Assembly (NCBI GenBank): GCA_026025075.1
Contig: JAPEUI010000008.1
Span: 1-64,000, forward strand
Source of the DNA: Vezdaea acicularis
Taxonomy: Eukaryota
Length of the DNA stretch: 64,000 bases
Direction of reading: 5' to 3'
Both the position numbers and the translations under genes were made by a program. Positions 5,501-36,673 of the stretch are shown one piece after another. Each line of letters begins with the position of its first letter. Position 1 is the stretch's first letter. A model generated the notes under the pieces. The model did not search any database. It was not told the origin of the DNA and saw only the letters and a program-made list of their open reading frames with translations.

Positions 5501-6792
5501 TAGCGGAGGCGGAGGCAATGTACGAGCGGGCGCTGGCAGGGTATGAGAAGGCGGTCGGGGCGGAGCACATGTCGACGCTGAACACGGTCAACAACCTCGG
5601 GCTGCTGTACAGGCATCAGGGCCGGCTGGGGGAAGCGGAGGCGATGTACGAGCGGGCGCTGGCGGGGCAGGAGAAGACGGTCGGGGCGGAACACATGTCG
5701 ACGCTGAACACGGTCAACAACCTCGGGATCCTGTACAGGCATCAGGGCCGGCTGGGGGAAGCGGAGGCGATGTACGAGCGGGCGCTGGCAGGGTATGAGA
5801 AGGTGGTCGGGGAGCAGCACATGTCGACGCTGAACACGGTCAACAACCTCGGGCTGCTGTACTCAGATCAGGGCCGGCCGGGGGAGGCGGAGGCGATGTA
5901 CGAGCGGGCGCTGGCAGGGCTGGAGAAGGCGGTTGGGGCAGAGCACATGTCGACGCTGGGCACGGTCAACAACCTCGGGATCCTGTACCGGGATCAGGGC
6001 CGGCTGGGGGAGGCGGAGGCGATGTTCAAGCAGGCGTTGGCAGGGCTGGAGAAGGCAGTTGGGGCAGAGCACAAGTCGACGCTAGACACGGTCAACAACC
6101 TCGGGACCCTGTATCAGAACCAGGGCCGGCTGGGGGAGGCGGAGGCAATGTTCAAGCAGGCACTGGCAGGGAAGGAGAAGGCCTGCGGTCTAGATCACAT
6201 ATCCACGCTCGAGACAGTCAACAACCTCGGGGTCCTGCACTGGAATCAGGGCCGGCTGGGGGAGGCGGAGGCGATGTACAAGCGGGCGCTGGCAGGGCTG
6301 GAGAAGGCCTGCAGTCCAGATCACACATCCACGCTCAGGACAGTCAACAACCTCGGGGTCCTATACAAGAATCAGGGCCGGCTGGGGGAGGCGGAGGCGA
6401 TGTACGAGCGGGCGCTGGCAGGGCTGGAGAAGGCGCTCGGGGCGGAGCACATGTCGACGCTGGACACGGTCCACAACCTCGGGGTCCTGTACTCAGATCA
6501 GGGCCGACTGAGGGAGGCGGAGGCGATGTACGAGCGGGCTCTGGCAGGGAAAGAGAAGTCGGTTGGGGCAGAGAACAGGTCGACGCTGGAAACGGTCAAC
6601 AACCTCGGGGTCCTATACGAGAATCAGGGCCGGCTGGCGGAGGCGGAGGCGATGTACAAGCGGGCACTGGCAGGGCTAGAGAAAGCGGTCGGAGAGGATC
6701 ACACGTCGACGCTTAGGACGGCCGAAAATCTCAGAAAGTTGTACGAAAAGCAAGGTAGAATCACGGAGGCAGAGGCTATACACCAGCGGTGA
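2554..6792 (+). CDS. NLR-like protein: SesB-like alpha/beta hydrolase - NB-ARC - TPR (11 well-conserved 42-aa repeats plus a degenerate one); about 5 introns
   Basis: Spliced reading gives IIAIHGLNG, nucleophile elbow FVAHSLGG, FMGTPHQG and NHINMVKF. Walker A GLGGMGKT, Walker B WLLVFDNID, IIVTTR and LPLAL are present. 126-bp TPR units span 5338-6790. Introns at about 2711-2811, 3048-3107, 3167-3217, 3732-3889 and 4603-4685. Confidence 0.92.
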
Positions 6793-11863: not shown

Positions 11864-12006
11864 AGGCTTAGCATTAGCATCACCTGGTATAACGCGCCAT
11901 GAATCTAATGTCAACAGTTGTATGCAAACATCGTGGAGTGTGGATTATACAGCTAAATTATAACAATTGCGACCTGACGTCTGGTTAAGGTGCCGCCTTT
12001 ACCGGA

Positions 12007-15000
12007 ATGGCCGAAGCGCTAGCAATCGTCAGCCTAGTCGCCGCTATCGCCCAGTTTGTCGCCTTGGGGGGCAAGGTACTGGATCGTCTTAATGATTTTA
12101 GGCAGAGCGTTGAAGATCTACCAAAGACCTTTCGCAATATCGCTCGCCAGCTGCCGCTATTGATTGATACTCTCAAACGAACGCAAAGTCAGGCCGATTC
12201 TGGCTGTTTGAGCGAAGAGACTGCTAGGGCTCTCAACCCAATAGTCGAAGGATCTCTAGCCAATGTCAAGCAGCTAGGGGATATACTAGCTAAAGCGCTA
12301 CCTTTGGAGAAGGATTCGACCTGGAGGAGACGTATTAAGGCTCTTGCTAGTCTTGCGCATGACAAAACCATCGAGCAGATTTCTTCCGAGCTTGGTTCAA
12401 ATGTGGGCGTGTTGACATACTACCAGGCCACAACTAATTCGGAGTTCGCCAGTTTTACGCCGGATAAGAACTTGACTACGTTTGATAAAGAAAAAGACTA
12501 CCAATGCTTGTGCGATTTGCGATTGACTGATCCTCGGGATGACAAAATTAGGATTGAGCGGAGTAAAGATGATCTGCTCAAAGATTCATACACGTGGATC
12601 CTTGAAGATCCAGCTTATGAAGATTGGAGCCAAAATGACGGTACACAGTTGCTTTGGATTAAAGGTGATCCTGGCAAAGGCAAGACAATGTTGATGATAG
12701 GTCTCATTAACGAGCTATCAAAGCAATTAGAATCGACAGCTGGCTCGAGCATACTATCCTACTTCTTCTGTCAGGGCACTGAGCCTAATCTCAACAATGC
12801 AGTATCCGCTCTCAGGGGCCTGATCTACCTGCTGGTTGTTCAACATAAGACCCTTATCCGACATGTGCGGAAGAGGTACGACAGTTCAGGAAGACCTTTA
12901 TTTGAAGATTCCAACGCATTGTTTGCTTTATCGACAATACTCTCAGATATATTGCATGACTCCAGTCTTACAAGGGTTTATTTAATGATAGATGCTCTTG
13001 ATGAATGCAATTCTGAGCTATCTCATCTCTGTGACCTAATCGCTCGCAATTCTTCCGAACCTTCTAAGGTTAAGTGGCTTGTATCAAGCCGTAATAAGCC
13101 TGAAATACAAGAAAGGCTGAGATCAGGTTGTTCTCGTGGTAGAATCAGCCTCGAATTGAATCCAGTTCACGTTTCACGCGCAGTCAATGCTTTCATCGAC
13201 TTCAAAGTCTCTAAACTAACAGAATTAAAGGCATACAAAACCAAACTTCGCGATGAGATCAGAAACTATCTCTATTCGAAGGCGGAGGGGACCTTTCTCT
13301 GGGTGGCTCTGGTCTGCAAAGCGCTTCAAGGGGTGCAGGGTCGAAAGACACTCTCTACTCTGGAAAGTTTTCCATCTGGCTTAGAGCCGTTTTACGAGCA
13401 AATGATGAAACAAATCCGCGATCTCAAAGATGGCGATGACGTTAAATCATGCATGCGGATTCTTTCCTCAGTCACGCTGGCATATCGTCCTCTTCATCTA
13501 AAAGAGTTGATTATTGTTGCCGACCTCCAAGAAGAGCCTGATGATGTCGAGTCGTTGAACGAGTTGATAGATCTGTGTGGTTCGTTCCTTACTGTCCGTG
13601 AAGAGACCGTTTACTTTATTCATCAGTCAGCTAGAGATTTCTTAAGCGCTAGCAAAGTTTCACAAGTATTTCTTTCAGGCCAAGGAGAGGAGCATTGCAA
13701 GATTACAATGCGATCTTTAAAGGCCATGTCTAATACTCTAAGAAGAGATATTTGCAACCTACGAATGCCGGGTACCCTCATAGATGAGTTAGACGACGTC
13801 AATCAAGGCCCTTTAAACCAAATTCGGTACGCATGCTGTTATTGGGTCAACCATCTTCGTGACGCCAGACATCTTCCGCCGAAACAAATCGGCATCTGCG
13901 ATAGCGGAGAGGTCCATGAATTTCTCCAGAAGCATTTCCTCCATTGGCTTGAGGCCCTAAGTCTTATGGGAAATATGTCCGAGGGGGTCATTATGGTAAG
14001 AACTTTAGAGTCAATACTTGTTGTAAGTGTTTCTGTGAATCTATACCATAGCCTTCCTCACTAAGTTATCGAAGCCTGAACCTAAAGTAGCGCCGCTATT
14101 ACTCGCTCTGCTTCGTGATGCAAAACGTTTTATCCTTTACCATAGGTTGATCATCGAAAAGGCACCGCTCCAAGCATACGTTTCTGCTCTTATGTTCAGT
14201 CCGAAAGAGAGTTTGATAAGGGAACAATTTTCTAGTGAAGCGCCATCGTGGGTCAAGATCTGCTCAAGGATGGAGCAGAATTGGAGTCCATGCGTTCAGA
14301 CACTCGAAGGCCACTCTGGTATGGTCATGGCGGTCACATTCTCGCCGGACGGACGGCGGCTTGCATCTGCTTCGGACGACAAGACAGTGCGGCTATGGGA
14401 CGCAGAGACAGGAGCTCTTCAGCAGACACTCGAGGGCCACTCTGGTTGGGTCAGTGCGGTCGCGTTCTCGCCGGACGGACGACGGCTTGCATCTGCTTTG
14501 TGGGACAAGACGGTGCGGCTCTGGGATGCGGAGACGGGAGCTCTTCAGCAGACGCTCGAGGGCCACTCTAGTTGGGTCAGGGCGGTTGCGTTCTCGTCGG
14601 ATGGACGGCGGCTTGCATCTGCTTCGGACGACAAGACAGTGCGGCTATGGGACGCAGAGACAGGAGCTCTTCAGCAGACACTCGAGGGCCACTCTAATTG
14701 GGTTAATGGGGTCACGTTCTCGCCGGACGGACGGCGGCTTGCATCTGCTTCGGAGGACAAGACGGTGCGGCTCTGGGATGCGGAGACGGGAGCTCTTCAG
14801 CAGATGCTCGAGGGCCACTCTGGTTGGGTCAGGGCGGTCGCGTTCTCGTCAGACGGACGGCGGCTTGCATCTGCTTCGTGGGACAGGACAGTGCGGCTCT
14901 GGAATGCAGAGACGGGAGCTCTTCAGCAGACGCTCGAGGGCCACTCTGATTGGGTCATGGCGGTCACGTTCTCGCCGGATGGACAGCGGCTTGCATCTGC

Positions 15001-16210
15001 TTCGAGAGACAAGACAGTGCGGCTCTGGGATGCGGAGACGGGAACTCTTCAGCAGACGCTCGAGGGCCACTCTAGTTGGGTCAGGGCGGTTGCGTTCTCG
15101 TCGGATGGACGGCGGCTTGCATCTGCTTCGGACGACAAGACAGTGCGGCTCTGGGATGCGGAGCCGGGAGCTCTTCAGCAGACGCTCGAGGGCCATTCTA
15201 ATGGGGTCCGGGCGGTCACGTTCTCGCCGGACGGACGGCGGCTTGCATCTGCTTCATCGGACAAGACAGTGCGGCTCTGGGATGCGGAGACGGGAGCTCT
15301 TCAGCAGACACTCGAGGGCCACTCTTACTGGGTTGAGGCAGTTGTGTTCTCGTCGGACGGACGACGGCTTGCATCTGCTTCGTGGGACAAGACAGTGCGG
15401 CTCTGGGATGCGGAGACGGGAGCTCTTCAGCAGACGCTCGAGGACCACTCTAACTGGGCTTATGCAGTTGTGTTCTCGCCGGACAGACGGCGGCTTGCAT
15501 CTGCTTCACAGGACAAGATAGTGCGGCTCTGGAATGCGGAGACGAGAGCTCTTCATTCGACGCTCGAGGGCCACTCTAGTTCGGTCCATGGGGTCACTTT
15601 CTCGCCGGACGGACGGCGGCTTGCATCTGCTTCACAGGACAAGACAGTGCGGCTCTGGGATGCGGAGACGGGAGCTCTTCAGCAGAAACTCAAGGGTCAC
15701 TCTCGTTCGGTCATGGCGGTCACGTTCTCGTCGGACGGACGGCGGCTTGCATCTGCTTCACAGGACAAGACAGTGCGGCTCTGGGATGCGGAGACGGGAG
15801 CTCTTCAGCAGACACTCGAGGGCCATTTTGACTGGGTTGAGGCAGTTGTGTTCTCGCCGGACGGACGGCGGCTTGCATCTGCTTCGGGAGACAAGACAGT
15901 GCGGCTCTGGGATGCGGAAACGGGAACTTGTCAACAAACAATGAAGGACTGTTATAACTTCGTTTTAGGCTCTTCCGGTCTAAAGACTCTCTTTTCAATT
16001 TCCAATCAGGGTAAGGTCTGGTCTTCATACACTCTAGATAATTACCAGAACAATTGGGTAATCTGGCAAGGCTGTAAAGTTCTATGGCTTCCTCCAGAAT
16101 ATAGACCTACTCGCGCAAGGTTCCAGAATAACATCCTTGCAATGGGACACTCATCAGGTCGAGTTATTGTGATCACCTTTAGTTTAGACGATAGCCCGTT
16201 CAAAAAGTAA
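12007..16210 (+). CDS. NLR-like NWD protein: helical N-terminal domain (SesA/NACHT_N-like) - NACHT - 13 highly conserved WD40 repeats (HET-E-like architecture without a HET domain)
   Basis: N-terminus MAEALAIVSLVAAIAQFV; Walker A WIKGDPGKGKT; Walker B LMIDALDEC; KWLVSSR, GTFLWV and FIHQSA motifs. One intron at ~14023-14090. 126-bp GH...WD repeats span 14300-15930. Confidence 0.93.
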
Positions 16211-16632
16211 GTTTGCATCTTCAAAGCTGTAGCAAAGGGACTCATGAATGTTTAGCTGTACACCCTCTCTGCTACCTAGTTCACCGTCTAAGTAATAAGC
16301 GCATTTCAGCCTGACTGCGCTGGAAGAGCGCTCGGTCACCGGAGAGCTGCAGTGCGGGATCGTAAGTGTTGTACATTTGCAAAATCGTGCCTCCCACATT
16401 AATCATACCCTAAGTACGGCGATCAACGAATTCATTCGTAATAAACTTAGCTCACAGATTACCTGGGGAGGTCTTCGATGTATCAGTTGAACAAATACCT
16501 CAGTGAGTGCAGGTAGTTCCTGATTCCTGGGAGTTATACCATATATTGGCGGTCTCGTAAATGTACCACACTTACGACCCCCTACTATCGGATAGGAAGT
16601 GGGTTGAGTAGTAAAGAAAACCTCAAAATCTA

Positions 16633-17826
16633 CAGTGCCATGTCATAAATGTTCGTCCGATTTAAGCGAAAAATGGTCGTCGCGACCCCAATCAATTAAT
16701 ACTTCGTATACCAGCCATCTGCCTCAATTACCGCGTTAATCCTTCATGGCATGCTATCTAATAGGTTCTGAAAGGAATCCTCCGGAATCTGCTCCCAAGA
16801 TTTAGGTAGAACTGAGCCCAAAACTTCCCTAATCTGCCCAGATCCTTTTGCGCGTGATAGTCGGCCCTCGTCAATCTCATGCATCCCATTTTTGAGCGGA
16901 AACCATTGATGTTCAATGGGATTTAGGTTAGGGGAATATGGAGGCCAATCTAATACCTTAATTCCCATATTTTCAAGCCATTGAGTGACTTGTCCAAAGG
17001 TATGAATTGGAGCATTATCATGCATAAATATCGTGTCTTCGTCTAGTAGAGTTGGAAGTTGAGTTTGTAGAAGGTCCAGATAGATTTTGCCAGTGATTCC
17101 ACCTTTTGCACTATTTGAATCCCCTTCCATTACCACTAACTCAGATCTCCTTTCACCGGAAAATGCTGCCCAGACCATCACTGAAATTCTCCCATTTGGA
17201 TTTGAATGTGTTATAGCGTAGGGCTTCCATTTGTCTTCTGGGGGGTCGAAGTACCCAAACTTGATCCATTCCAGACCCTCGTTGTACTGAACACTCATCA
17301 CTAAATGCCACCTTTGAGCAATCTTTAATTGTCCAATCTCTTCTTGCTAAACACCATTGAAGTCTTCTTTGGGCTCGAAGAGTATCAAGAGGAGGTCTCT
17401 TGGCAGCTTTCCATTTGCGCTGGCCTTCTGCAAAAATCCGACGTTTAAAGGAGCTGAGACTAAGCTGTGGACAGATCTGAGCATTGGCAAACCGATAAAT
17501 GGCTGTAGGCATAGCCTTAAACTGTTCAATTATTCCTTGGTCCTGTTCTTTGGTTGTTTTTCAAGGTCGGCCTTGTCGCGTCCGGGACTTGAACAGGCTT
17601 CGACCCATGCCTTCAGCGGCCCAGATACTCTGACAGGTGGTCTTAGGTACCCCTGTCTCACTTGAAATATCCCCAAAGCTCTTGCCTCCTGCCCTCAATC
17701 CACATATAAAAGCCCTCACGGTCGGGTCGTGCTCGCGGCGCTTTGGGATCGTTCTGATCGGTGGCATGTTTTTGGTGTGTCGCAAAAATTCACGAAAATC
17801 GGACGAACACTTATGACATGGCACTG
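16633..17826 (-). mobile_element. Tc1/mariner (IS630-Tc1) DNA transposon, 1194 bp, with a decayed transposase
   Basis: TIRs cagtgccatgtcataaatgttcgtccgattt and aaatcggacgaacacttatgacatggcactg; TA duplication at 16631-16632 and 17827-17828. HTH segment, FSDE, HDNAPIH and WPPYSPNLNPIE are split across frames with stops (e.g. MP*RINAVIEADGWYTKY). Confidence 0.95.
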
Positions 17827-18128
17827 TACTAGCCCGGCAAACTACGGCGGATTCTTACCAGCCATCTTTTGGCGTATACCCGAATTTGGGTTTTGAATCA
17901 AGATACGGGAGACAGCGGCTGACTGATTGCTTGCAGGGATCTGCGATTTAGGGACCATGTATCTCGGGAAATGTTCCTTGTAGTGACTCGAGGAAGATTA
18001 CCATTCCCGCCCCCCAACTCAAAATCTTCATCCTGCCCAGTGCGTATGCGGCAGTCGTCATAGAGAGATTTGAGAAACTTGAATGCTGGATGGATGGAGA
18101 TTTCTCCGAGAAGCACTAAGCACGTTCG

Positions 18129-18717
18129 AAGCGGTTGACGAAATTGATGGCGCTTAAGCAAGTGATGGGCATTTTTTACCCATCGGTATATTTATATGGG
18201 GATTGATGATAAATATTCTTAGTATGAGCTCAATAGTGCTGCTTCGGGTTCAGCCAGCAGCTTGGCAGAACGTTTTGTGCCTTCGAGCTTGTAGTGTTCG
18301 GCCATGGGGGAACTTCTTTTTTGTGCCTTCGATTAAGTAGCTTTTAGTTATGGGGGATCTTCCACTTATTGCCTTTGATTAAATAGCTTTAATTATGGGG
18401 GAACTTTCATGATATATCTTCGATCAAGTAGCTTTTAAATATGGGGGGACTCCCATTTATTGCCTTCAATTAAGTAGCTTTTAGCTATGGGGGAACTCCC
18501 GTTTGATACCTTCAATCAAGTAGCGTTTAGCTACGGGAAACTCCTGTTTAATGCCTTTGATTAAGTAGCTTTTAGCTACGGGGGAACTCCCGTTTATTGT
18601 TTTTGATTAAGTAGCTTTTAGCTATGGAAGAACTCCCGTTTTGTGCCTTTGATCAAGTAGCGTTTAGCTACGGGGGAACCCCCATTTAATGTGCCATCAA
18701 ATTTTGTCCGCAGCTTT
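18129..18717. repeat. Inverted-repeat-bounded unit containing ~9 tandem 46-bp repeats with a GGGGAAC(T/C)CCC mini-hairpin
   Basis: Left end aagcggttgacgaaattgatggcgc and right end gtgccatcaaattttgtccgcagctt are inverted. Units start at about 18278, 18324, 18370 and continue to ~18644. Confidence 0.85.
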
Positions 18718-19021
18718 GAGTATACATTAGGTCTCGCTCATTGCATAACAAGGTTGCATAGGGGAATGTTGGTGTTGAGGCTGAAAATGCTACTCAAAAC
18801 TAGACCGTCGCAATTGGTCAGTATAAATAGACCCATGTCCTGCGGTGGCAGCCTTGTGGAGGCACATCAACATCGTTTCTGAGGATCACGCAATGTCAAT
18901 AACGCCAGTTCACCGGAGCTTTCTGCCTTAAGACATCATTTTGGCTCCATTTAACCCTTGCACTAGATCCACAAACGCGACCCTTGCCACTTAATGCGGG
19001 GAGAGTCTACCATTTTTCAAG

Positions 19022-19318
19022 ATGCCTGGCAAAGATCTTTGTCTCCTGTCCCTCGACGGTGGCGGTGTGCGAGGATTGTCGTCACTTGCAATCCTTAAGA
19101 GACTTATGGAGACTATTAATCCGGAGGCACCACCAAAGCCTTGCGAATACTTTGATATGATTGGGGGAACAAGCACTGGTGGATTGATGGCTATAATGCT
19201 TGGTCGTCTGAAGATGGACATTGACAAATGCATCGAAGCCTACGTGGCACTGTTTGATCGAGTTTTCAAGACGAAACGGCACCGCGTCAAGTTAAATGGG
19301 CAAGTGCAAGGGCGTTTT
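19022..19318 (+). pseudogene. 5' fragment of the duplicated patatin-NB-ARC-TPR gene
   Basis: Near-identical to 32611-32908 (DGGGVRG, GTSTG). Similarity stops abruptly after ...GQVQGRF. Confidence 0.9.
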
Positions 19319-19377
19319 TTTAGCAGCAATTTATTGGTTAAGTCAAGGCCGTTTCTTCTAGAAGTGATAATCTTTCA

Positions 19378-20732
19378 TTATAGGTCGGCCAAAATAACGT
19401 TGCCGACCTTGTTTAATTGTCTTAATTTTACATAAGCAATATCCTCAGCACACTGGCAAGACTTGTTAGCAATGGCTTTGACTTGTAAATCTTCATCCTC
19501 GATATCATATTCGTGAATTACACGACATTTCATGCAACGAGGTGTGGGTTCAAACCAATTTCGTTGTTTAGCGTGTATAATTGGCGCAAAATGAGACTGT
19601 GCACACTCTCTTGCGTAAGTGAATGGCGCCCACTTTTTGCGATTTACCAGCGGGAGAACAAAAGGTACCTGATTAGGTGCCATTGGCGTGGGTTTGCGGC
19701 CAGCATACTCCTCAATCAAACGAACCGTTACCAGGCTCTGAAAATTGGCAAGTGCTATGCCAGTTGCGTTTCGAGTGTATCCAACTGCTTGGTATCGTCT
19801 TTCTGGTGTTGTAAGGTTCGTATCAGATTGATTACAAAAACGAGCTTTTAACTCTTCGTCATAATGATTTGAACCTTGTATAAACCGACGTTGCCGTAAT
19901 GCTGTAAAGTTCGTTGTCAAGGCTGGTACATTGACGTATCCCATATACATAACTGTGGAACCAATAATTAGACTTCTTTCCGGAAGAGTTGACTGAGTAA
20001 CAAAAATGCAATTAGAAAACCCATCGTGATTATCAGGATTATAATTAGCTGGGAAATGATTTGCTATGGCGATCTGTCGTAAATTTGCCTGAACGGCATC
20101 TGATAAATATCAAGTAAGTATATGCCTAAATCTTGTCCTGAATTGCTAAGGAATCAAGAAAGAACGTTCTTACCTGGATTTTTGATACGATCAGCTGCAT
20201 TGTGTACCATGAGGTATATTTGAACTACCAATTCTAATGGTGGTTCCGCCGGTATCATTTGCACCCGTGTAATGTCGTCATTAATGCTATTAACACCTTG
20301 TTCTAGCCAAGTCTTTGGTAAACTTGCAAGTACACTGAAGAAGTTGCCGAGGTTTCGCAAAAATGTAATCCAGTCCGGGCCCTCTGTTTGAGCTACCGAA
20401 TTCACTTCAGTCTGTTTGGATATCCATGATGAGTAGTGCGACATAGCACCATAAAAGTATAACATAATCCATGTTAGGCGGCTGGCTGAATTCACGACTT
20501 CGGAAATAAAAAACGATTGATATTTGGGATCTTGATAAAGATTATAGACAGAAGCCATCATCTTGGTTAAGTTATCTGTTAGGCTTGCATATTTTAAGAC
20601 TCGGCTGTTGATAAGCGCCCTATCTTTAGGTAAAAGACTGAGATCATAAGCTTTCCATGAAGCGACAGAGCCAACTGCCGCCCCCAGTGGTACTAATCTC
20701 TGGGAAATAAATGCGGCCAGTGTGGCTTCCAT
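19378..20732 (-). CDS. Module gene A1: unknown ~426-aa protein with C-terminal PRCMKCRVI...CQCAE (putative permuted zinc-deaminase-like domain)
   Basis: ORFs 20154-20732 and 19378-19950 join in frame through a GT-AG intron at 20100-20173 (...KNP/DAVQANLRQ...GFSNCIFVTQ...IIGSTVMYMG). Homologous to 24077-25196. The deaminase label is inference. Confidence 0.75.
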
Positions 20733-21064
20733 TTGATAGCTTTTCGGAAAAAAAGCTTGAATGATAGAAAAACTTTGGTCTTCAAGCTATTTGTTGCTCA
20801 CTCAACAGAAGATTTGCCTGCAGCATTAAGGTACGTCAACAGCTCAGCTCTAGACATGCTCACAGCTAAAACTCGGCTCCGGCCCTGCCATTTAGGGCTT
20901 TGACAGTGGCGCTTGCATGAAATGATAAATTGGATCATTTCACGGCCTTAACATCAGCATCAGGTTTGCACGTTAGTTGTGAACACCTGTGCAATATACA
21001 GAACCAGTCACTGCATAGAATTCTTGGGAGAAACCTTCCAGACCAAATTCTATATTACGAAGAA

Positions 21065-22115
21065 ATGGAGAAAATCAGCGTTACTCAAAGCCTTTTGGCT
21101 GATTTAAGTGAGTCAGAGGACCATTGCAACGCGTGGTCTTTTTAAGTCGTTGAACATGACTGACGTTTATTTAGGCTATAGCAATCTCCTTCAAACAGTC
21201 CAGTTACCCACTCAGAAAGCCCTGCAGCAATTGCAGCAGATTCAGCAAAAGATCGACACACTACCTAAATCTAGCAAGCCTATACAACCAGGGATGCAGC
21301 CCTCGAAGTTCTTAAAAGCCCTTGCTGAACTCAATACTGCAAATCCAGATACTCTTCAAGACTTTCTAAATGCGACCCAAGTCTGGCCCTCAGCCAATTT
21401 ACCCAAACCCATTCCTATAGGAACGCATGACAGTATACAATATTTTATCAAAGTTTCTGACAAAACTGTTCATCAAGATTCTAGCTCCGCTGCGATCCCG
21501 ACTCGTGAAGTTTTCTACGGGATCTTCACCTACGAGACACTAAGTATTTTGAGAAGTCAATCTACAACGACTCACCTTGATTATGACTCGCTAGCCAAAA
21601 ATGCGGATGATTCTTATGAGAGTTTTGTTTCTGAGGCAGAAAGAGTCCCGTTAGGCCAAACTATAATCACAGACCTCAAGTACGGGTTTGGCATTGGGAG
21701 GCTCTATCACAAAACATCAAAAGCAGCCGATATGGAGGACACTGGCTTCTACGTAATATGCAACGCTGTCGATAAGAGTATTTGGATTGCCTTTGATTTT
21801 GAGCCTTATGGCGAAACAGGCGATATCAACCTTATACAGCCAGAGTACGGTGATCCCTATGGAACGCTGCCTCTGGACACGCAGAAAATGGTGATAGGGG
21901 TTATGAGACTCTTCACAAAGGAGTGGACAGCGAGGAAACCCCTGTCTTTAGATGACGGAGATCCGTTTTGTAACGGGGCGGGCATTCCACTAACATGCAA
22001 GCTAGTGGCAAAATCAGCATTTGTAGCAGATGTGCTTAATGCCATCAAGGCTGGCAGGGCTAAAGATACATTAAGCAGGTCCTCATGGTCATTCAAAGGA
22101 CCTAAAGCCTCCTAG
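21065..22115 (+). CDS. Module gene B1: unknown ~327-aa protein, divergently transcribed partner of A1
   Basis: ATG at 21065 (MEKISVTQSLLADL). Intron 21108-21174 (gtgagt...ctgac...tag) rejoins ORF 21108-22115 in frame. Shares motifs with 26708-27709. Confidence 0.75.
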
Positions 22116-22133
22116 TACTTAACTCTTAGATGT

Positions 22134-23151
22134 GCGAGCACCGAAGGGGTACGAGAAGGCCAGGGGTTCAGATCACCCACCTGCGCTCAACAGGGTCAAC
22201 AACCTAGGCGTTCTGTATAAGGGTGAAGGCAAGCTGGCGGAAGCTGGGGTCATGTACCAGCGAGCATTGAAGGGGAGGGAGAAGGCCTTGGGTCCAGATC
22301 ACACATACACGCTCAACACAGTCAGCAACCTAGGCTTTCTTTACAGCAACCAAGGCAAGCTGGCGGAGGCTGAGGCCATGTTCCAGCGAGCATTGAAGGG
22401 TTACGAGAAGGCCTGAGGTCCCAATCACACATCCACGCTTGACACAGTCAGCAACCTAGGCGACTTGTACCGCAACCAATGCAAGCTGGCGAAGGCTGAA
22501 GCTATGTACCAGCGAGCATTAAAAGAATATGAGAAGGCCTGGGGTCCAGATCACACATCCGCGCTTGATACAGTCAACAACCTAGGCGTTCTATACAAGG
22601 CTCAAGGCAAGCGGGCGGAGGCTGAGGCCATGTACAGGCGAGCATTGAAGGCGAAGGAGAAGGTCTGGGGTGCAGGACACACATCTACACTTGACACAGT
22701 CAACAACCTAGGCAACCTGTACAGCGAGCAAGGCAAGCTGACGGAGGCTGAAGCCATGTATCGGCTAGCATTGAAGGGGTTCGAGAAGGCCTGGGGTCCA
22801 GATCACACATCCACGCTCAACACAGTCAACAACCTAGGCATCATGTACGGCAAGCAAGGCAAGCTGGCGAAGGCTGAGGCCATGTACCAGCGAGCATTGA
22901 AGGGTTGCGAGAAGGCCTGGGGTCCAGATCACACATCCACGCTCAACACCATCAACGACCTAGGCAATCTGTACATGTCTCAAGGCAAGCTGGCGGAGGC
23001 CGAGGCCATGTTTCAGCGAGCACTTAAGGGTTACGCAGATGCCCGAGGTCTTGCTCATCCGAGAACAGAGTTAATCAATAGAAAACTGCAAGCGCTACTG
23101 GAGAAAAAGAAAAGGCGAAAGCAAGATATTATCCGCAAATTTCTTTTTTAA
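22134..23151 (+). pseudogene. Orphaned TPR 3' fragment of the duplicated patatin NLR (7 repeats)
   Basis: Same repeat family and C-terminus (YADARGLAHP.TELINR.LQ...KKK) as 34371-36398. It has no start, an internal TGG>TGA at 22414-22416, and begins 19 bp after the B1 stop. Confidence 0.9.
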
Positions 23152-23597
23152 CAAATGGAAGCAATGGTCGAGTCTGAGAGATGGGGTTATGAGCCCAAAT
23201 TATGTTTACTTAAGAAGATACTCTACGAATGAGGGAAATCATGATAAGCAAAGCTTTTTATATAGAGCTTCCGGACCACGCTAATCTGATGAAATCTCAT
23301 GACGTCCGATCTCGCATTTCGGTCTTTTGAGAAGGCCTTCTATCGATTCCAAGCTTCATATCCAATTGCTGAACCAATTCAGGGTTGCCCGAAGCTATGG
23401 CAGCCAGGACAAGTTATGACGCGAAGGTGCTCTGAACAACACGGTTGGTTTAAAGTCGCAGCAGACGGGAAGGGAATCTACCGATGAATATGAGGAGGAC
23501 ATTCCCACGCCTGAGCTGCCCATCAAAAGATACTGACGCCGGCGTGAGCTTGTACCGCGGCAGAAATTTCCGAACCTCAGCCGCACTGTCTTCAGCA

Positions 23598-23868
23598 CGA
23601 TGCGGTGGACAAGATTGATGCCGTAGAGGCGAATAGTGGGCTTGTTTACCCATGGGCGCGCGTTACTTTCAGCAGTTCCGATATCGTTGGCAATCAATGA
23701 TGAACATTCTCAGTGTTGGCTCAATAGTACTACTCCTCGCTCTTGTTGGATTATTATACTCCGGGTTATATCTGCGGCCTGGCAGGGCCGATTTGTACCT
23801 TCGAGTGTAAAGCATTTAGCTACGGGGGAACCCCCGTTTAATGCGCCATCAGTTTTGTCCACAGCTTT
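23598..23868. repeat. Another copy of the inverted-repeat-bounded unit, with one 46-bp repeat
   Basis: gcggtggacaagattgatgccg...gctcaatag...ccttcgagtgtaaagcatttagctacgggggaacccccgtttaatgcgccatcagttttgtccacagcttt, colinear with 31991-32303. Confidence 0.8.
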
Positions 23869-24076
23869 GAAAGTAGACTAGTGGAGGATCAAATCAAAAT
23901 ATCACATTGGGGTGAAGACTAGACTACGAGATACTACTGAACCAAAAGAAGGTAAGAAGAACCATCGTCTCATCACTTAAAACCCACCAATCTCTCTCCG
24001 ATATGTGCGAAAAAAATAACGAAAAATCTTGAAGCATTGTAGACGAGTTGGATACCCTCCTGCTTTCCTGCTTTTC

Positions 24077-25196
24077 TCAACCGTGAGAAGTAGCCACACA
24101 CATAGGGTGGGCAACGGCCTCGGCACAGGAGAAAGTTGGGTATATTTGCTCGGTGTAGTTGTCTGGTTCGGCAACGCAAGAGTACCTGAAGATGACCCGG
24201 CAGCGTCGACAGCGGGTGCGAGGCGTCATTTCGGGGATGGCGTAGGACATGGCTCGATCATTGAGATGATTATAAGTAATCGGAGGCCCCAAGGCTGGGG
24301 GTAGAGCTGCAATTCGGGTCCATTCTGCCTGCAAGCGGCCATCGGCGCCGGCATACAATCCATTACGATAGGCCACTCCAAGGGGCCGTACGTCGCGTGC
24401 AAGTCGGTTGGTCAAACTGGTCAACTGAGTCCGATATATATCTGTCATGCGAGAGTTTTGTCGTGCGTCTTTTGCCCATTGGTCAAGATCCGTAAATGCA
24501 CCCCATTTGCTGTCCGACATTGGTGCAATCCACCTGTTGTTGGCAGTAGGAGGACGAACGGCCTGACCTTGGCAGAGAAACACACACTTTGCTATCCCAA
24601 TATTGGCCCAACGTACGCGGCCAGCTTGACGGAAAAAGGCATTGTTGAGTGCAGCAATAGCATTGGCTATCAAGAGATGTTAGAGCTTGCAATCAGAAGA
24701 TAGTAAGAGAAGTGATGAATGGTTTACCATGTGTGGCTGGGTTCCGGACCCTCAAGATCGTTTGAAACAGTAGTTCCAGGGGCGCTTGAGCAGCAATATT
24801 GGGAATTCCGGGATTACCAGCCCTCCATCCTGACCAGATATTGCTGCGGTGAGGAATCAAGGGAACGTAACCAGCTTGGTTGGCCATTGCTTGGGCAATT
24901 TGCCCGAGTTGGTTGATCTTGTTCATAAATAGTCTTTTAGCTTGAGCGCCTTGAAGGCCCCAATTGCATAGTTCCGCGACGCCTCGGAAGGCGTCTGAGA
25001 CGAGCCATAAGATCACATTAATCAGGTCCTTTGAAGACTGCTGGACTAGTAGACGGTCCACATCACCGCGTTTGAGTGTTCTTAGCATCACAATGGCCAC
25101 ATCTATAAACTTTTCAGTCACCTTGACTGCCCGGTGTGTCGGCACATTGTTGTTGAAAAATTGGGCCGAGTGCAAGGGACGATTCGGATCTGCCAT
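24077..25196 (-). CDS. Module gene A2: unknown ~352-aa protein with C-terminal PRTRCRRCRVI...FSCAE (putative permuted zinc-deaminase-like domain)
   Basis: ORFs 24693-25196 and 24077-24673 join in frame via intron 24667-24727 (gtaaac...ctaac...tag). Motifs PLELLFQ, GIAKCVFLCQ, RCRRCRVI and CAE parallel A1. Confidence 0.78.
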
Positions 25197-26707
25197 GATG
25201 CGCGTGATAGTGATAGTAGTGGAAGTGAGATTGAATAAATTTCTAATTCAATTCCTTATCAGATGAACGCTTTGTATTCCTTATCCACGAGCTTACCGTT
25301 TAGATTCTTACGACTTTGTGCTACTTTGGAGGCCTGGCTGAGATTCTCTGGATTAGGATCAGACTGGTCTTGCGTATGTTATATCTCTTAATAGCAATGA
25401 CTTATCTGAAAGGGTGATTAAAAAACTTCTTCCGTGTCGTAGATCTTTATAGTTTTGCGGACGTGGCACCGAGTAGCCAAGAGCTTTCTGTTCAAGATAA
25501 TGCTCCCCTAAGAAATACTTCCATCTCACTCGCCGGAGCATACAACACCCCAGTCTCAATGCACACGATTGTTTCAGCTGAGGCTTGAAGGCTCCCTTCG
25601 ATCCACTTACAGTTCTCCGATGCGCAGTCCTGGAGGGTTGCAACTGGCTTCCATGATTACTTCTGTCAAGGCAGTCATGTCAGCTGAAAAATAAGAGAAG
25701 CTGATGATAGCTGTTGCATGTGCAGCTGGTACACAATATGAAGAGATCAATAATGAAAGGTTACTTCTTCTAGAAGAAGCTGCCTCGACTTAACCAATGG
25801 ATTGCTGCTGAAAACGCCAGCGAGAGATACCAAACTTCACACCCGCGCGTGACGAGGGCCATTGTTCTTCAAAGGGAGTTAATGGGAGCATCCATACAGT
25901 TGTGGCTTCATGTAGGGTAGTATCTGCTTCCACTTGAATGAAACCGTAATGGTCTCGGATGAATGGAAGGCCTCTTCAAGATTGAAGCCTCATTCATTAA
26001 ATCAGCCAATCCCTTCCCGCATAGAAGTGAACTTGTTGTTTTTTCAGCTGATCCATGGCCTACGTAGATTCCTGCAAGGTAACGTTGATATAAACATGAG
26101 GGAAAGCGGCTTGCGTCTCGTATTCCATGTGCATCAAAACGCGGGGCAGCGGCCGGTTTCAACCTGCTTCCAAGAGTCCATCTCCAATCGAATCCTGACC
26201 AACCATTCTATTTGGGCTTGTGTACAATTATGACCGTTCCGGTGTCACCGCTAGTTACCTTGATTGTAGGTACTGCCATGATCCATTTTGCTACTAGATG
26301 CGGTCGGTGTGCCACTTTATCTCGAGGTCGGTGAAGCCATTTGTTGCAATGTTCAGGGTTACATCCGGACCTCGATGCCCCAAGGTTCCGACGCCACACA
26401 CGCTCAAGGGAGGGATTGGTCTTGCTCCTTATTGGATATTTTCTTTGGGGCATGAGCTGGACCCGGGAAGTGTGCAAGCGTTTTGGGACAGATGCTTGAT
26501 CCCTAGAAGTTCGAAGACGCAGCTCGAATTTTGAAAGTGGCAGGCTTTCACGGGTCCTAAAGCGTCCGTTTGGAATGCTGCCGCCTTTTCCTATATAACC
26601 GGAGTCCTCAGATTTCTCCTCACAAGATGCTTAAAATTGCGCATAGATATTCGACATCTCATCATAGTATCTAACCTACCTTGCGAGAACAGAAACCGTA
26701 ATTCAAG

Positions 26708-27709
26708 ATGGGTCAACCGGCCTCCCCGGACAATATCACTGCAGAAATGGAAAACAAGTTTCGCGGTATTCAGGGAAAAATAAGCACGTTAACCGGTAAG
26801 CATAAGGGCGCCGCTCCCTTTCCCCTTTTCCCTTCCCCAGCAACACCAAACACTTGTGCTCATCATCTTCCAGATGAGGACATCCAGCTAGAACTCGACC
26901 GACCCCCTAAGACTGACACGGACACATTTTACATGTGGCTGGTTGATGCTGAAGGCGAGAGGTTGGAGAAGGAGGTGTTTCGCGAACCGCCCACCCTTGC
27001 CGAGTCATCGGCCAGCATTAAAGGAACCGATTTCAAAGATCCCTCTTCCATTCTGAACCTGTACTCCAATACGCAAGGCTTCGGCGTACCGTTGCCATTG
27101 CGTATTGGGAAGTACAGCGCCGACAGGGAATACCACTGCTCAGTTGATTTCGAGTCCAGCCTTCTTCCGATTGATTTCCCGTCCGATACGCAGAAGGTTG
27201 ACACCGGCCTCACGTACCTGAAATCTGAACCGCCCAATCCGGCTCTCCCAACCTTTGTCTATCAGCTAGGCCGCCTCTTGCACGCAGAAACACCCACAGC
27301 CGAGGAGACCAAGTTGGAAGACTCGTGCTTTGTGTTTGCCATCGATGTCGATCGGACTGCTTGGGCAATCTGGAATCCAGCCAGCGTCGAGGGAACTTGG
27401 GAAGAAGAGCCAAAGCCCGTCCGCCCAATCAACGGGGTCTTCCCCGGATTTGAGAAGAATCCCTGTGCCGCCGTCCCGCTTGGAACCGTCAATGAGCTTC
27501 TTCCCGTCGGTGACGGATCATCGTCAAAAGTCATCCAGATTGACCCCAAGACCTTCGTGGAGGCTAAAGAAAAATCTACTCTGAAATTTGGTGAAGTAAC
27601 TGAAGCCGCTTGGGCGACGCTCAGTAAGGTTTCAACCAAATTCAGCAATGCTGCCGGCCTCATCAATCCAGCAACGACAGCAGCGTTGCAGGTACCCAAA
27701 GCGAAATGA
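26708..27709 (+). CDS. Module gene B2: unknown ~307-333-aa protein, divergently transcribed partner of A2
   Basis: 333-codon ORF with upstream TATATAA (~26592) and a probable in-frame intron at 26796-26873. VPLPLRIG, FPSDTQKVDTGLT, LGRLLH and LEDSCFVFAIDVDRTAWAIWN align with B1. Confidence 0.78.
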   Translation: MGQPASPDNITAEMENKFRGIQGKISTLTGKHKGAAPFPLFPSPATPNTCAHHLPDEDIQLELDRPPKTDTDTFYMWLVDAEGERLEKEVFREPPTLAESSASIKGTDFKDPSSILNLYSNTQGFGVPLPLRIGKYSADREYHCSVDFESSLLPIDFPSDTQKVDTGLTYLKSEPPNPALPTFVYQLGRLLHAETPTAEETKLEDSCFVFAIDVDRTAWAIWNPASVEGTWEEEPKPVRPINGVFPGFEKNPCAAVPLGTVNELLPVGDGSSSKVIQIDPKTFVEAKEKSTLKFGEVTEAAWATLSKVSTKFSNAAGLINPATTAALQVPKAK

Positions 27710-28683: not shown

Positions 28684-30441
28684 TTAGCCGAGCCAACCCT
28701 TGAGCTTAGACCAAGTACTACTAACTCCAGACCACACGTAATCTACGACAGACTTCCCAGCCTTTTCTGCCATCATGCGAACCTCTTGAAGCTGCTGTTT
28801 GAGATCTTTCATTTCAGCTTCGCGAGAAAGCTCGAGTGCTTTTGCATCTGCCTCGGCTTTATGAAGCTTAGCTTCAAGCTCTTTTTGCTGATCTTCATTA
28901 ATCTTCCTCATGATCTCACTATGAGTTCGATCTTTCTCTGCAAGCTTGTCTTCAAGCTCCCTTCTCCATTTTGCTTCCAGTAACAAAATTTCTTGGTTAA
29001 TAGCTGCTCCTGCAGCGGTCTGCACAAGAGACTTTTTCTCATCCACAATCTCTCTTTGAATTTCGAGAACAATCTCTGGATTGCCAAGAGCGTGGCTCAA
29101 TACGCGCAATGCTGAGTCTTGAGTGTTGTTATGGCGTTCCATTTTTGCTCCATATTGAAGAGGCACTTTCCAAAAGTCTTCACGAAGCTCTTTCTCTCTC
29201 TCTCTTCCAATTTCCTCGTCCTGGAGGGCATCCCATTTGGTTGTTACGAGAACAACGTTGGCTAGCGCGTCGGTACCGCATAGTTTGAGCATCATATCAA
29301 GATTCTTAACCGCAGAGCCTTTCATTCTAGCTTCTGTAATCTCACGTAGGTATATAATACCAGTGAGTTTCACCCCTAAAGTATAACTTGACTATATGTC
29401 AGTATGATAATCACAAGAATGACGACAGAATCCTTACTTAAACTCCATCCAGTTAGCAATTCGTCTGAGTACCTCCGTGTCACTGAGATTTGTATCATCA
29501 AAACCTGGTGTATCGACTAATTTGATGATGTGAGACTTGTAGTGAAAATCGGTCTCATCGACATCTGCAGTGCATGATCTAGAGCCATGTCCAACATTCA
29601 TGACTCGAGAACCGCTGACACAGTTGATAAACTATCACTGAAGATTATCTCATGCCCGGACAACAATCCTGGGAATTGTCTTACACTGCTTTTTCCAGCG
29701 CCCGTTGGCCCCATAATGCTAAACTCGATGTTAGCATAGATTTTGAGAGAGTTCTATACAATCTTGCAATTACTAACCCAATAAGGTTCCTATATACTGG
29801 AGGCGCCTCAACGGGAGGAGGGACCCTTGTGCGGGCTGGCTTACGACGAAGAGTGCTCGTACCGTAACATTGGGGTTGCGTGCGGCGATCTCGAGGCATC
29901 TCTCGCGCAGGGTTAATTGATTTGGTCCTCCCATCGTCTATTGAAGTGTTAGATTTGGTAAGTTGAAGTGAGAATCGGATACGTTGCCACCGTCATGCCA
30001 CGCTGGTAAATCCTCTACTCTCAGATCTTCGAACTCCTCCTCAACATAGCGGGAAGGGCGTTTGCCGGATTCTTCGGAAACCTTAAAATTTTCCTCTCGT
30101 TTATGAGTATTAAGTATTTCAAATGACAAATCATCAGCATAATCCATGTCACTGTTTGTTTTCCGGAGATTATTTCGAGCTTTTGAGGGATCAAAACTCA
30201 ATGCAGCTAAGTCGACCTCTACTGCATCCTCGTCGTCGTTTGAATCGGCCAACTCAGTGTTGCCTCTAGAGATTCGACTACTAGAAACTGGTGAGATCTC
30301 TTCCTTATCTGAGGGCTCCGCGACTCTATCAGGATGATGGCTAGTTCGGCGACGCATGAATAATGGATTAGATTGCATTTCGTCCAGAAGTTCAGGCGGA
30401 GGGGAGGATGGAGAAGTAGCGGAATCTTTGTAGGCAGTCAT
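28684..30441 (-). CDS. Fungal P-loop GTPase (G-domain / MMR_HSR1-AIG1-like) with disordered N-terminus and C-terminal coiled coil; several introns
   Basis: Spliced minus strand gives IMGPTGAGKS (G1, ~29687-29717), VGHGSRSCT (G2), LVDTPGFDDT (G3), GIIYL and VVLVTTKWD (G4). Linkage of the 5' exon (29938-30447 ORF) is less certain. Confidence 0.82.
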
Positions 30442-31990
30442 AGTCACAACAACGTCAAAGATTTAACCTTATGCCTTCAACAGTTTGCGTGAGATAGGGC
30501 GTCCTCAATTTAAGGAAAAGCTGGTGTTTATGATTGAGGGTGAAATGTGGGCTCTTAGTCTAATGGGTTCTCAGCCTTGTCGATTCTCAGCCTCGTGGGT
30601 TTTCAGCCTCATCGGTTCTCAGTCTTGTAAACCATCCAATGATGATTCCGGACCGGATGCTCTCTTCATATTGGCATGCTCTATCTAATTTCATTAGATA
30701 ATTTGACTGGGCCAGATCAGGCAGTGCAAGATACCGGGGCAATCCCGCAATGGAAGTAGGCCGGAGTCACTTGGAGTCGACCAACAGGATCTTATCAACG
30801 AAGCCACAGCGGGTTGGCCTCTGAAAGATTGCTTGTTGCAGACCATTGCAACATCAACCTTGCATGCCAACCAAAACCAGCTCACCTAGAAATGAGGCGC
30901 ATTAATCGGTTGGGTGATAGCTAATGCCACTACAAAATATTCTATTACATGACAGTAGACGGTTTTTTGCCCTCAGTAGGTAACGATTGACCAACCAGGC
31001 TGATCAGCTTCATCCGGGTGCTGCAGCCACCTTCACAATTCAGCCTGACCTCTCAAACTAACCAATCGTTTTGCTTTGCGTACCTACACGACTCTTAGCA
31101 CAATGCAGAGGAGCTGGCACGCGCAGTATGAGAGAATGAATGGGAGCCGAATAAACAGAGGAAATACTTTGAGACCTTTATCCGTTCTCTTATCTATAGC
31201 GTCAACTCTTCTCGTTCCTTTCATTAAATTGTATGCACAGTGAAGCAGTCTCGTAGTTCGGCGTACGCAGCTACTCCGTAAGCATTCAGGATCGAGATAC
31301 TAGGGCGGCAGGTCGACTCCAAATCGGAATAACAACGGGAGCAGTGCTCGAGGCAAGCTTTCCCATTCCTCCCGTAGGGTCACCACCACCACCTGACAGT
31401 CTGATAGAAACCGCTTTCAGGTATGGCATATACTTGGTACAGGGGGGGGTTACATTCGCAAAATTGTGCCTCTTACATTTATCATGTCCTAGGCACTGCG
31501 ATCAACGACTCCATTCATAAGAAACCTAGCTCACTGGTTACCTGGGGAGGTCTTCAATAGATCAGTTCAACAATAGCCTCATCGAGTGCATGCGGTTCTT
31601 GATTCCTGGGTGTTATACCATATATGTACAACACTTACGAACCCCCACTGTAAGAAGTGGGATGAGCAGTAAAGAAAACCTCAAAATCTGCTAGCCTAGC
31701 GCACCACAGCAGATTTTCACCGCCCATCTTTTGGCGTATATCCGAATTCTGGTTTCGAATCAAGATACGGGAGACAGCGGCTGGCTGATCGCTTGCAGGG
31801 ATCTGCGATTTTGGAACTGTGTATCTCGGGAAATGTTCCCTGTAGTGACTCGAAAAAGATTACCCTTCCCGCCCCTCGACTCAAAATCTTCATCCTGCCC
31901 AGTGCGTATGCGGTAGCCGTCATAGAGAGATTTGAGAAACCTGACCGCTGGGTGGATGGAGATATCTCCGAGAAGCACTGAGCACGTTTG

Positions 31991-32303
31991 AAGCGGTTGA
32001 CGAAATCGATGGCGCATAAGCGAGCGATGGGCATTTTTACCCATCGGTGTATTTGTATGGGAATCCATGGTAATTATTGTTAGTATGAGCTCAATAGCAC
32101 TGCCCCGGGTTTAGCCTGCGGCTTGGCAGAGCCGTTTTATGCCTTCGAGTTTGTAGCGTTTAGCTATGGGGGAACTCCCGTTTTGTGCCTTCAATTAAGT
32201 AGCGTTTGGCTACGGGGGAACTCCCGCTTTGTGCCTTCGATCAACTAGCGTTTAGCTACGGGGGAACTCCCGTTTAATGCGCCATCAATTTTGTCCACAG
32301 CTT
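31991..32303. repeat. Inverted-repeat-bounded unit with three tandem 46-bp repeats, upstream of the intact patatin NLR
   Basis: aagcggttgacgaaatcgatggcgcat ... atgcgccatcaattttgtccacagctt; units at about 32140, 32186 and 32232. Confidence 0.85.
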
Positions 32304-32610
32304 TGAGTATACGTTAGGTCTCGCTCGTTGCATAACGAGGTTGCGTAAGGGAATGTTGGTATTAAGGCTGAAAACGCTACTCAAAACCAGACCGTCTTCA
32401 TTGGTCAGTATAAATGGACCCGTGTCCTGCAGTGGCAGCCTTGTAGAGGCACCATTAACATCGTTTCTGAGGATCACGCAATGTCGGTAACGCCAGTTCA
32501 ACAGAGCTTTCTGCCTCAAGACATCATTTTGGCTCCATTTAGGTCTTGCACTAAGTACAGGAATGCGACCCTCGCCACTTTTATAGGGGGAAATTCTGCC
32601 ATTCTTCAAG

Positions 32611-36398: not shown

Positions 36399-36673
36399 CG
36401 AAGTTAAGCAATGGCTGAGTTTGTGAGAGATGGGGTTTATGAGCCCAAATTATGTTTAATTAAGATAATTCACGAATGAGGGAATTGATGATAAGCAAGG
36501 CTTTTTGTGTGGAGCTTCCGCACCACGCTAATCTAATGAAATCTTATGACGCCCAATCTCGCATTTCAGTCTTTTGGGAAGGCCTTCTATCGATTCCAAG
36601 CTTCATATCCAATTGCTGAACCAATTCAGGGTTGCCCGAAGCTATGGCAGCCGTGACGACTTATGACGCGAAG

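Follow-up and report, generated by a model that had tools for sequence, protein, structure and literature searches.

Replacement of the core of a duplicated receptor gene

We have analysed 64,000 nucleotides of Vezdaea acicularis DNA (GenBank assembly GCA_026025075.1, contig JAPEUI010000008.1, positions 1 to 64,000 of the forward strand), hereafter the window, which is eukaryotic in character, with genes interrupted by short GT..AG introns, and carries a cluster of fungal NOD-like receptor (NLR) genes. A unit of about 5.5 kb is present twice in this cluster, as copy 1 (16372–23870) and copy 2 (31451–36963), as found by blastn of the window against itself. Copy 2 contains an intact NLR gene with patatin, NB-ARC and TPR domains, and in copy 1 the core of the same gene has been replaced by a short insert that holds two divergently oriented genes, here called A1 and B1. 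The replacement, the two genes and their relatives are the subject of this work, and the coordinates of all features are collected in Table 1.

The intact NLR of copy 2, once its introns (33012–33070, 33655–33704 and 34361–34406) are removed, codes for 1210 amino acids without an internal stop and matches the Pfam families Patatin (E = 1e-15 and 1e-7), NB-ARC (6e-7), TPR_10 (5e-99) and also TPR_12. Having patatin, NB-ARC and TPR in one protein, it belongs to the PLP-1/HET-Z type, whose domain order, patatin–NB-ARC–TPR according to PMC13449251, is the same; the comparison is one of domains. The disrupted gene of copy 1 is left with 99 patatin codons and seven TPR units and is not a working member of this type.

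Two blocks of homology frame the insert. The left one pairs 18546–19318 with 32134–32907 (89.2% identity over 775 columns) and the right one 22134–23426 with 35381–36673 (85.7% over 1301 columns), and additional blocks farther upstream pair 17829–18405 with 31691–32268 and 16372–16546 with 31451–31625. In the junction alignments the homology is lost after CGTTTT at 19318; it is regained within a TPR unit of 126 bp, from GCGAGCA at 22134 onwards. These are the same borders that a preliminary description of this DNA had proposed. The loss of at least some 2.2 kb of NLR core, given there too, is borne out by the alignments: 2473 bp (32908–35380) are deleted in a collinear, end-anchored alignment and 2221 bp if the most 5' TPR register that matched is taken. 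What is gone from the protein corresponds approximately to residues 100–872 of the spliced model, that is, the rest of the patatin domain, the NB-ARC domain and the first TPRs. The replacement DNA does contain just two genes, both intact and divergent, with stop codons 59 nt (A1) and 18 nt (B1) away from the left and right junctions (about 60 and 19 had been estimated), and the TGA seen earlier in the TPR remnant lies in frame. The description of the insert as more AT-rich holds in direction, with a GC content of 0.424 against 0.449 for the replaced NLR segment and 0.499 for the window; the difference is modest, and the insert and its 5' flank do not differ in AT richness. Apart from its leftmost ca. 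65 bp, the insert has no second match at the DNA level within the window. There is a high probability that the replacement structure is right and real. We also observed that the reading frame of the patatin remnant runs on into the insert without a stop; the resulting open reading frame (ORF) has 137 amino acids (19022–19435), with 99 patatin and 38 read-through codons, and overlaps the 3' end of A1 on the opposite strand.

Spliced A1 codes for 426 amino acids without stops, and the reading across its splice junction (...NP-D-AVQ...) agrees with the SPDAVQ and TPDLVQ of its relatives. The start of B1 at 21156 is backed by the aligned N-termini of several relatives. Between the two start codons there are 423 bp and not 332 bp as stated before, a figure that came from taking as start the ATG at 21066, which belongs to an upstream ORF of 26 codons (21066–21145) located in the spacer and out of frame with B1. 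The spacer is presumed to act as a bidirectional promoter.

Table 1. Coordinates of the duplicated NLR unit, the insert, the A and B genes and associated elements in the window.
Feature	Position	Strand	Remarks
Upstream part of copy 1	16372–19021	+	corresponds to 31451–32610; includes 46-bp tandem array 18304–18691 and an extra Tc1/mariner element
Tc1/mariner-type element	16631–17828	-	1198 bp; 40-nt terminal inverted repeats (90% complementary); TA at each outer end
Patatin exon 1 remnant	19022–19318	+	99 codons; 94.3% nucleotide identity to 32611–32907
Insert	19319–22133		2815 bp, standing in for 32908–35380 of the NLR unit
Ca. 70-bp element, left end of insert	19317–19386	+	A1 3' flank and last A1 codons; starts at the left junction
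A1 exon 2	19378–20099	-	includes TAA stop 19378–19380
A1 intron	20100–20173	-	74 nt, GTAAGA...CAG, phase 1
A1 exon 1	20174–20732	-	ATG 20730–20732
Spacer between A1 and B1 start codons	20733–21155		423 bp
B1	21156–22115	+	319 amino acids; stop TAG 22113–22115
TPR remnant	22134–23151	+	7.2 units of 126 bp; in-frame TGA 22414–22416
Downstream part of copy 1	23152–23870	+	corresponds to 36399–36963
A2, divergent A1 paralogue	24077–25196	-	ca. 352 amino acids
A2 exon 1	25196–24728	-	
A2 intron	24727–24667	-	GTAAAC..CTAAC..TAG
A2 exon 2	24666–24077	-	
Ca. 70-bp element, second copy	25745–25815	-	in the A2–B2 spacer, ca. 550 bp upstream of A2
B2, putative partner of A2	26708–27709	+	333 amino acids
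Intact NLR, copy 2	32611–36398	+	exons 32611–33011, 33071–33654, 33705–34360, 34407–36398

No signature of a mobile element was found at the ends of the insert; the preliminary description had already noted that no terminal inverted repeat (TIR) or target-site duplication (TSD) is visible. Of 72 inverted pairs found in the region 19150–22300, 25 were listed, and none of these is a TIR joining the two ends; nor does any of the 26 families of direct repeats flank 19319 and 22133 as a TSD would. The Tc1/mariner-type element located 2 kb from the insert, upstream of the disrupted NLR, served as a positive control, its TIRs being recovered by the same scan. It carries an ORF with a DDE_3 fragment (16744–17346, minus strand) and is absent from copy 2 (31689/31691).

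Known classes of mobile DNA were considered for the insert and rejected. For a TIR transposon, there is neither TIR nor TSD nor a transposase or recombinase domain, and 2.2–2.5 kb of the target have been deleted instead. Helitrons start with 5'-TC and end with 3'-CTRR and a 3' hairpin, insert between A and T and carry a Rep/helicase gene; the insert begins TTTAGC and ends TTAGATG (CATCTA to GCTAAA on the reverse strand), and it has no Rep/helicase domain. A retrocopy, which would lack introns, have a poly(A) tail and form one transcription unit, does not agree with the 74-nt GT..AG intron retained by A1, nor with two genes on opposite strands. A Starship was discarded for an insert of 2.8 kb with two domain-less genes; a Starship enclosing the entire cluster could still exist, the remaining ORFs of the window having been scanned only in part.

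The left end of the insert coincides with the start of an element of about 70 bp that has a second, inverted copy in the spacer of another gene pair (A2–B2, see below). The two copies are 84% identical over 63 nt (E = 1.7e-13) and have a palindromic core, CTTCTAGAAG; a search of the window with nhmmer yielded no third one. The element might represent a dispersed repeat, serve in the regulation of the modules or be filler introduced during repair. The sequence at the left junction is GGGCGTTTT in the disrupted copy and GGTCGTTTT in the intact NLR, and beyond the homology the second element copy continues as GGCGTTTT. CGTTTT is thus common to the NLR target and to the second copy at the join. 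Provided that the donor was similar to the copy in the spacer, the left join may lie within this microhomology, and the odd G at 19311 would fit an origin in the donor.

Regarding the surroundings, the Pfam scan places two further receptors in the cluster, an NB-ARC–TPR gene (3877–6792) and a SesA–NACHT–WD40 gene (11989–16210), and to the right of the cluster genes of housekeeping type are found (MutL, Serinc, F-box/WD40 and ankyrin). Very similar internal repeat units of 126 bp occur in the NB-ARC–TPR gene and in the SesA–NACHT–WD40 gene (units 87–89% identical), and a long ankyrin-repeat ORF (53085–56594) also has very similar internal repeats. The N-terminal ORF that precedes the first NLR (3212–3739) has no Pfam domain. 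Two minus-strand ORFs of 235 and 174 amino acids in 28684–30462, between the A2–B2 pair and the intact NLR, do not reach the threshold of any Pfam family, the first being apparently rich in coiled coil. Related tandem arrays flank both copies of the NLR unit, with a 46-bp repeat upstream (18304–18691 and 32132–32280; 8.5 units in copy 1 vs. 3.2 in copy 2) and a 77-bp repeat downstream (23783–23870 and 36690–36957).

The A and B families and a second gene pair

Neither gene could be assigned to a described family. A1 exon 1, A1 exon 2 and B1 match no Pfam and no NCBIfam family at E ≤ 1, nothing was found in either library across the family members scanned, and PADLOC contains no family for A or B. 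A PADLOC match of a single B relative (E = 0.0059, function unknown) was not used. Among PDB sequence profiles, the top match of B had E = 0.18 and that of A, to a designed protein, E = 0.016. SEC-9 is the partner of the PLP-1/HET-Z NLR; unlike this partner, A and B are not SNARE-like (no Pfam match). Relatives do exist. At E ≤ 1e-3 the B family has 51 members out of 830 candidates, counting those of the window itself, and the four named ones come from Peltigera leucophlebia (75% identity), Letrouitia sp., Physcia stellaris and Vezdaea aestivalis. The A family has 31 representatives at E ≤ 1e-3 in 1.84 billion entries, and of 20 clusters looked up two carried organism names, Pseudocyphellaria aurata and Xylaria telfairii, the last one outside the lichens. 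A and B thus appear as small families with named members mostly among lichen-forming ascomycetes. A literature search on six locus tags of the named A and B relatives found no mention of them.

The predicted structure of A, obtained for a full-length relative (P0055) from a 29-row alignment, is confident (predicted local distance difference test, pLDDT, 82.2; predicted template modelling score, pTM, 0.87) and consists of a bundle of three helices at the N-terminus and an alpha/beta domain at the C-terminus. Foldseek gave no match at E ≤ 1e-3 in PDB and BFVD. VIA-align with the full-length query returned only generic three-helix bundles over residues ca. 15–138, the best with Z scores of 8.6 (root mean square deviation, rmsd, 3.4; 102 residues aligned) and 8.0, both under the tool's own bar for helical bundles. 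The ESM Atlas provided no usable feature match for P0055, its model there being poor (pLDDT 0.29). The AlphaFold model of B1 (27-row alignment; pLDDT 70.7, pTM 0.66) starts with three helices and ends with one, and the core between them is rich in beta structure and has two disordered loops. For B1 Foldseek found nothing at E ≤ 1e-3, and exhaustive VIA-align against 48,161 chains found nothing with Z ≥ 5 (best Z 3.5); the SUKH structures 3d5p (Z 2.9, rmsd 4.7, 94 aligned) and 3ffv (Z 2.6, rmsd 5.4, 102 aligned) were tied with unrelated rows.

Conservation within A points to a possible function. Four cysteines are nearly invariant (C213 in 21 of 22 members, C367 in 27/28, C370 in 26/28 and C395 in 25/28), together with an acidic pair (E397 in 25/28, D398 in 24/28), and in the model the motifs C-x-K-C (CxxC) and C-A-E-D (CAED) each open a helix of the C-terminal domain. 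We infer that the cysteines and the Glu-Asp pair form a putative zinc site, possibly catalytic. In cytidine and nucleotide deaminases the motif order is [HC]-A-E and then P-C-x-x-C. A was rejected as a member of these enzymes because the order is reversed, with C-x-K-C before C-A-E-D, and no deaminase family was among the Pfam matches at E ≤ 5 for 14 A members; a distant or permuted likeness to the deaminase fold may exist. In V. acicularis, A1 exon 2 keeps 68 of the 69 most conserved columns of its family, and B1 keeps 61 of the 62 columns conserved at ≥90% across 18 relatives, the relatives themselves missing 0–7. Conservation of this kind fits working genes, or merely a recent copy of working genes.

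To judge if A and B are also linked elsewhere we relied on the exact coincidence of contig sizes between 32 A relatives and 50 B relatives. Five sizes were common to both sets when 0.12 were expected: 4571, 6027, 24241 and 32338 bp, found in the ENA on both sides, and 1610 bp, found in the ENA for A and in Logan for B. On the contigs of 4.6 and 6.0 kb there is room for A and B only as neighbours. In the four pairs with the same source, the identities to A1 exon 2 and to B1 were 73 and 71%, 70 and 69%, 59 and 55%, and 48 and 51%. As the contigs coincide and the identities fall together, A and B are linked, co-inherited and co-diverging in four to five other assemblies. They are probably co-expressed from the spacer of 423 bp and act together. 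The view of the gene pair as a unit put forward in the preliminary description therefore stands as far as linkage is concerned; its own movement as a minimal cassette is another matter, to which we return below.

A second pair (module 2, 24077–27709) is located 2 kb downstream of the insert, also head to head, with a 1.5-kb spacer. A2 belongs to the A family: a profile built without A2 retrieved it with E = 4.8e-7 among 1298 ORFs of the window, and its intron is in phase 1, with the same position and phase as that of A1. A1 and A2 are only ca. 23% identical, for which reason the two modules are considered ancient paralogues and not recent copies. B2 agrees with B only in position, size and a short stretch, GRLxH..ED..F.V..VD..W. 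The B profile built without B2 gave no match to it at E < 1, hhalign gave E = 0.015 with a probability of 3%, and BLASTP E = 0.006 over 42 amino acids. A kinship of B2 with the B family is only hinted at. The GC content at third codon positions is 0.51–0.57 in module 2 and 0.33–0.45 in A1 and B1. No NLR remnants flank module 2, and no further copies of A or B were found in the window.

Age of the disruption and constraint on the remnants

The presence of the intact duplicate allows dating the event. Between the two copies, the patatin exon (99 codons) has dS 0.235 and dN 0.013 (omega 0.057) and the TPR block dS 0.245 and omega 0.61, and the equal dS of the two parts fits a single duplication. 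If copy 1 had been without function ever since, one would expect about 27 nonsynonymous changes in the patatin remnant, where there are three, and 5.5 stops in the TPR remnant, where there is one. These shortfalls confine the disruption to the final 29% of the branch that leads to copy 1 (95% bound), under the assumptions that the patatin remnant is no longer selected and that there was no gene conversion, against which the dS values argue. The disruption is young.

This age bears on the suggestion that A1 and B1 had stayed open while the host gene decayed, and so were under selection or kept by addiction. The remnants have barely decayed. Under neutrality, 1.3–3.4 stops would be expected in A1 plus B1 since the disruption, with a probability of finding none between 0.27 and 0.03, and for this reason the open frames alone are no sign of either. 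Repeat-induced point mutation (RIP) was also rejected as the cause of the AT content of the insert or of the stop codon, the coding blocks having no clear directional excess of GC-to-AT changes (in the TPR block, copy 1 has AT and copy 2 GC at 63 sites, and the reverse is true at 59).

Origin of the insert and its meaning

The explanation that we favour, with a probability of roughly 0.5, is that the repair of a break captured a copy of a conserved two-gene A/B locus, without transposition; 2.5 kb of the target are gone and there are no transposon hallmarks, which is why we prefer it. A unit of ca. 5.5 kb carrying a PLP-1/HET-Z-type NLR would have been duplicated within the NLR cluster, and both copies would have been constrained for most of the time since. 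One or more recent breaks in copy 1 would then have been repaired with the loss of about 2.5 kb, the gap being filled with a 2.8-kb copy of another locus by end joining or template switching using microhomology. Repaired double-strand breaks can capture ectopic DNA or templated insertions, and like such captures the event described here combines a deletion with an insertion, lacks a target duplication and has a possible 6-nt microhomology at one of the junctions. Templated insertions at breaks are mostly of 5–34 bp in PMC11724301; in comparison, a capture of 2.8 kb with two whole genes would be at the far end of repair outcomes.

Several observations weigh against capture during repair. The microhomology at the left uses a paralogous copy of the ca. 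70-bp element as a stand-in for the donor and needs a 2-nt difference in the length of the T run, and at the right junction the alignment has no clear microhomology. The two copies of the element differ by 16%, approximately as much as the NLR copies do in non-coding DNA, and because of this divergence the left-end element was not recently copied from the one in the spacer. The weak family membership of B2 (profile null, hhalign 3%) counts on the same side, and so do metagenome scans with the A and B alignments, which produced 152 and 91 pattern matches, none of them confirmed by tblastn. Finally, it is unlikely that a random fragment would take in two complete genes and nothing more than 59 and 18 nt beyond their stops; so tight a fit speaks for the defined ends of a cassette or for a later trimming that selection kept in bounds.

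Later trimming, which the preliminary description had itself raised, is the core of the strongest alternative, to which we give a clearly smaller chance and which we consider unlikely overall: a larger piece of foreign or ectopic DNA, for instance a longer segment or a big element with A/B as its cargo, would have been inserted and subsequent deletions would have pared it down to two selected genes, the NLR core being lost then or at the insertion. Selection-limited deletion would leave both ends less than 60 nt from the stops, as found; the region of copy 1 has been hit otherwise too, by the Tc1/mariner element; and A1 and B1 retain nearly all the residues conserved in their families. The young age of the event leaves, however, little time for an insertion and at least two precise deletions, and there is no leftover TIR, long terminal repeat or recombinase in 19319–22133. 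Moreover, the left end is the end of a repeated element with a possible microhomology, which fits a single join.

Less probable again is that A and B form a minimal mobile cassette, moved in trans by a recombinase or by homing and kept by a toxin-antidote-like addiction. A and B do travel and diverge together in other assemblies, a second pair with the same layout is found within the same 10 kb, the insert is pared down to two genes, and the distribution is patchy, with named A relatives from Pseudocyphellaria (Peltigerales) and Xylaria (Sordariomycetes). Yet linkage and co-divergence are equally expected of a vertically inherited, co-regulated pair, the A1 and A2 sequences are ancient paralogues rather than recent copies, and transposition does not leave a deletion of 2.5 kb in the target. 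Together with the lack of terminal repeats, target duplication, transposase or recombinase, the intron kept in A1, the native 3' untranslated regions that have been cut off and the microhomology-like left join, these points leave the earlier proposal that the pair moved as a minimal cassette, by a mechanism of its own, without support.

An extended version of such mobility meets with still greater reserve on our part. Under it, A and B would be an undescribed selfish module found in ascomycetes that form lichens and in a few others. Its two toxin-antidote-like genes would code for a zinc enzyme rich in cysteine and for the partner of this enzyme, and the module would relocate as a whole, land preferentially in or beside NLR genes and persist by addiction; if this were true, the NLR cluster would hold two generations of A/B. 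The fungal killers Spok and wtf are single genes, bacterial toxin-antitoxin systems are pairs, and the antidote usually binds the toxin. Like toxin-antidote modules, A1 and B1 are compact and tightly linked, and they are intact inside decaying DNA. Unlike Spok and wtf, there are two genes here, and their open frames need no selection. Lichen fungi have giant Starship elements with patatin-like and NLR accessory genes, such as Tangerine, which is ca. 85 kb long, has a tyrosine-recombinase captain as first gene and has direct repeats of 4–5 bp and TIRs of 10–12 bp (PMC13486527). The lichen-fungal setting, the patatin-like and NLR genes in mobile or dynamic DNA and the neighbours moving together are similar; the 2.8-kb insert differs in having no captain, direct repeats or TIRs.

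It is also conceivable, at a very low probability, that A1 and B1 are the original residents and that the intact copy gave rise to the NLR flanks in two steps, each a partial duplication or a gene conversion. Ectopic exchange is frequent between NLR repeats (PMC13449251). Against this, the flanks rebuild one collinear unit with order and orientation right and equal dS (0.235 and 0.245), the non-coding DNA is collinear as well over 2.6 kb upstream and 0.7 kb downstream, and this would require two independent events of the same age and in the same register. Weakest of all is a chimeric assembly, the genome having copy 1 intact and A1/B1 at a separate place: repeat-rich NLR clusters are difficult to assemble and the case was judged from the assembly alone, but two false joins would be needed where there is no shared sequence, between copies that differ by 11–15%.

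NLR pseudogenes are common in fungi, and the event is most reasonably regarded as a variant of the ordinary way in which NLR genes become pseudogenes; the results do not support a cassette that moves by itself and is kept by addiction. In Podospora the usual lesions of nwd/NLR pseudogenes are stop codons, frameshifts and insertions of transposable elements, their repeats can stay open, and such genes are associated with transposable elements (PMC13449251). Like those cases, a duplicated NLR with highly similar repeats has here been inactivated and its repeat array remains almost open. Unlike the Podospora pseudogenes, the effector-to-NB-ARC core was cleanly swapped for two intact genes that do not belong to transposable elements, and the remnants do not have a strong RIP-like AT enrichment.

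One more dead receptor adds little to what is known, and the lasting value of the locus is as a pointer to an uncharacterised, conserved two-gene module. As an event, it provides a clean natural case of gene capture with deletion at the kilobase scale, datable against the flanking duplicate and useful for asking how fungal NLR clusters acquire unrelated genes. As a module, it brings forward two small protein families, tightly linked and co-diverging in lichen-forming fungi, without match in the domain and solved-structure libraries searched, with a confident model for A and a moderate one for B, and one definite and one probable A/B pair within a single NLR cluster. If A and B interact, or prove to be toxic and protective, they would represent a new kind of fungal two-gene system located beside immune receptors; if not, they would be one more co-regulated accessory gene pair.

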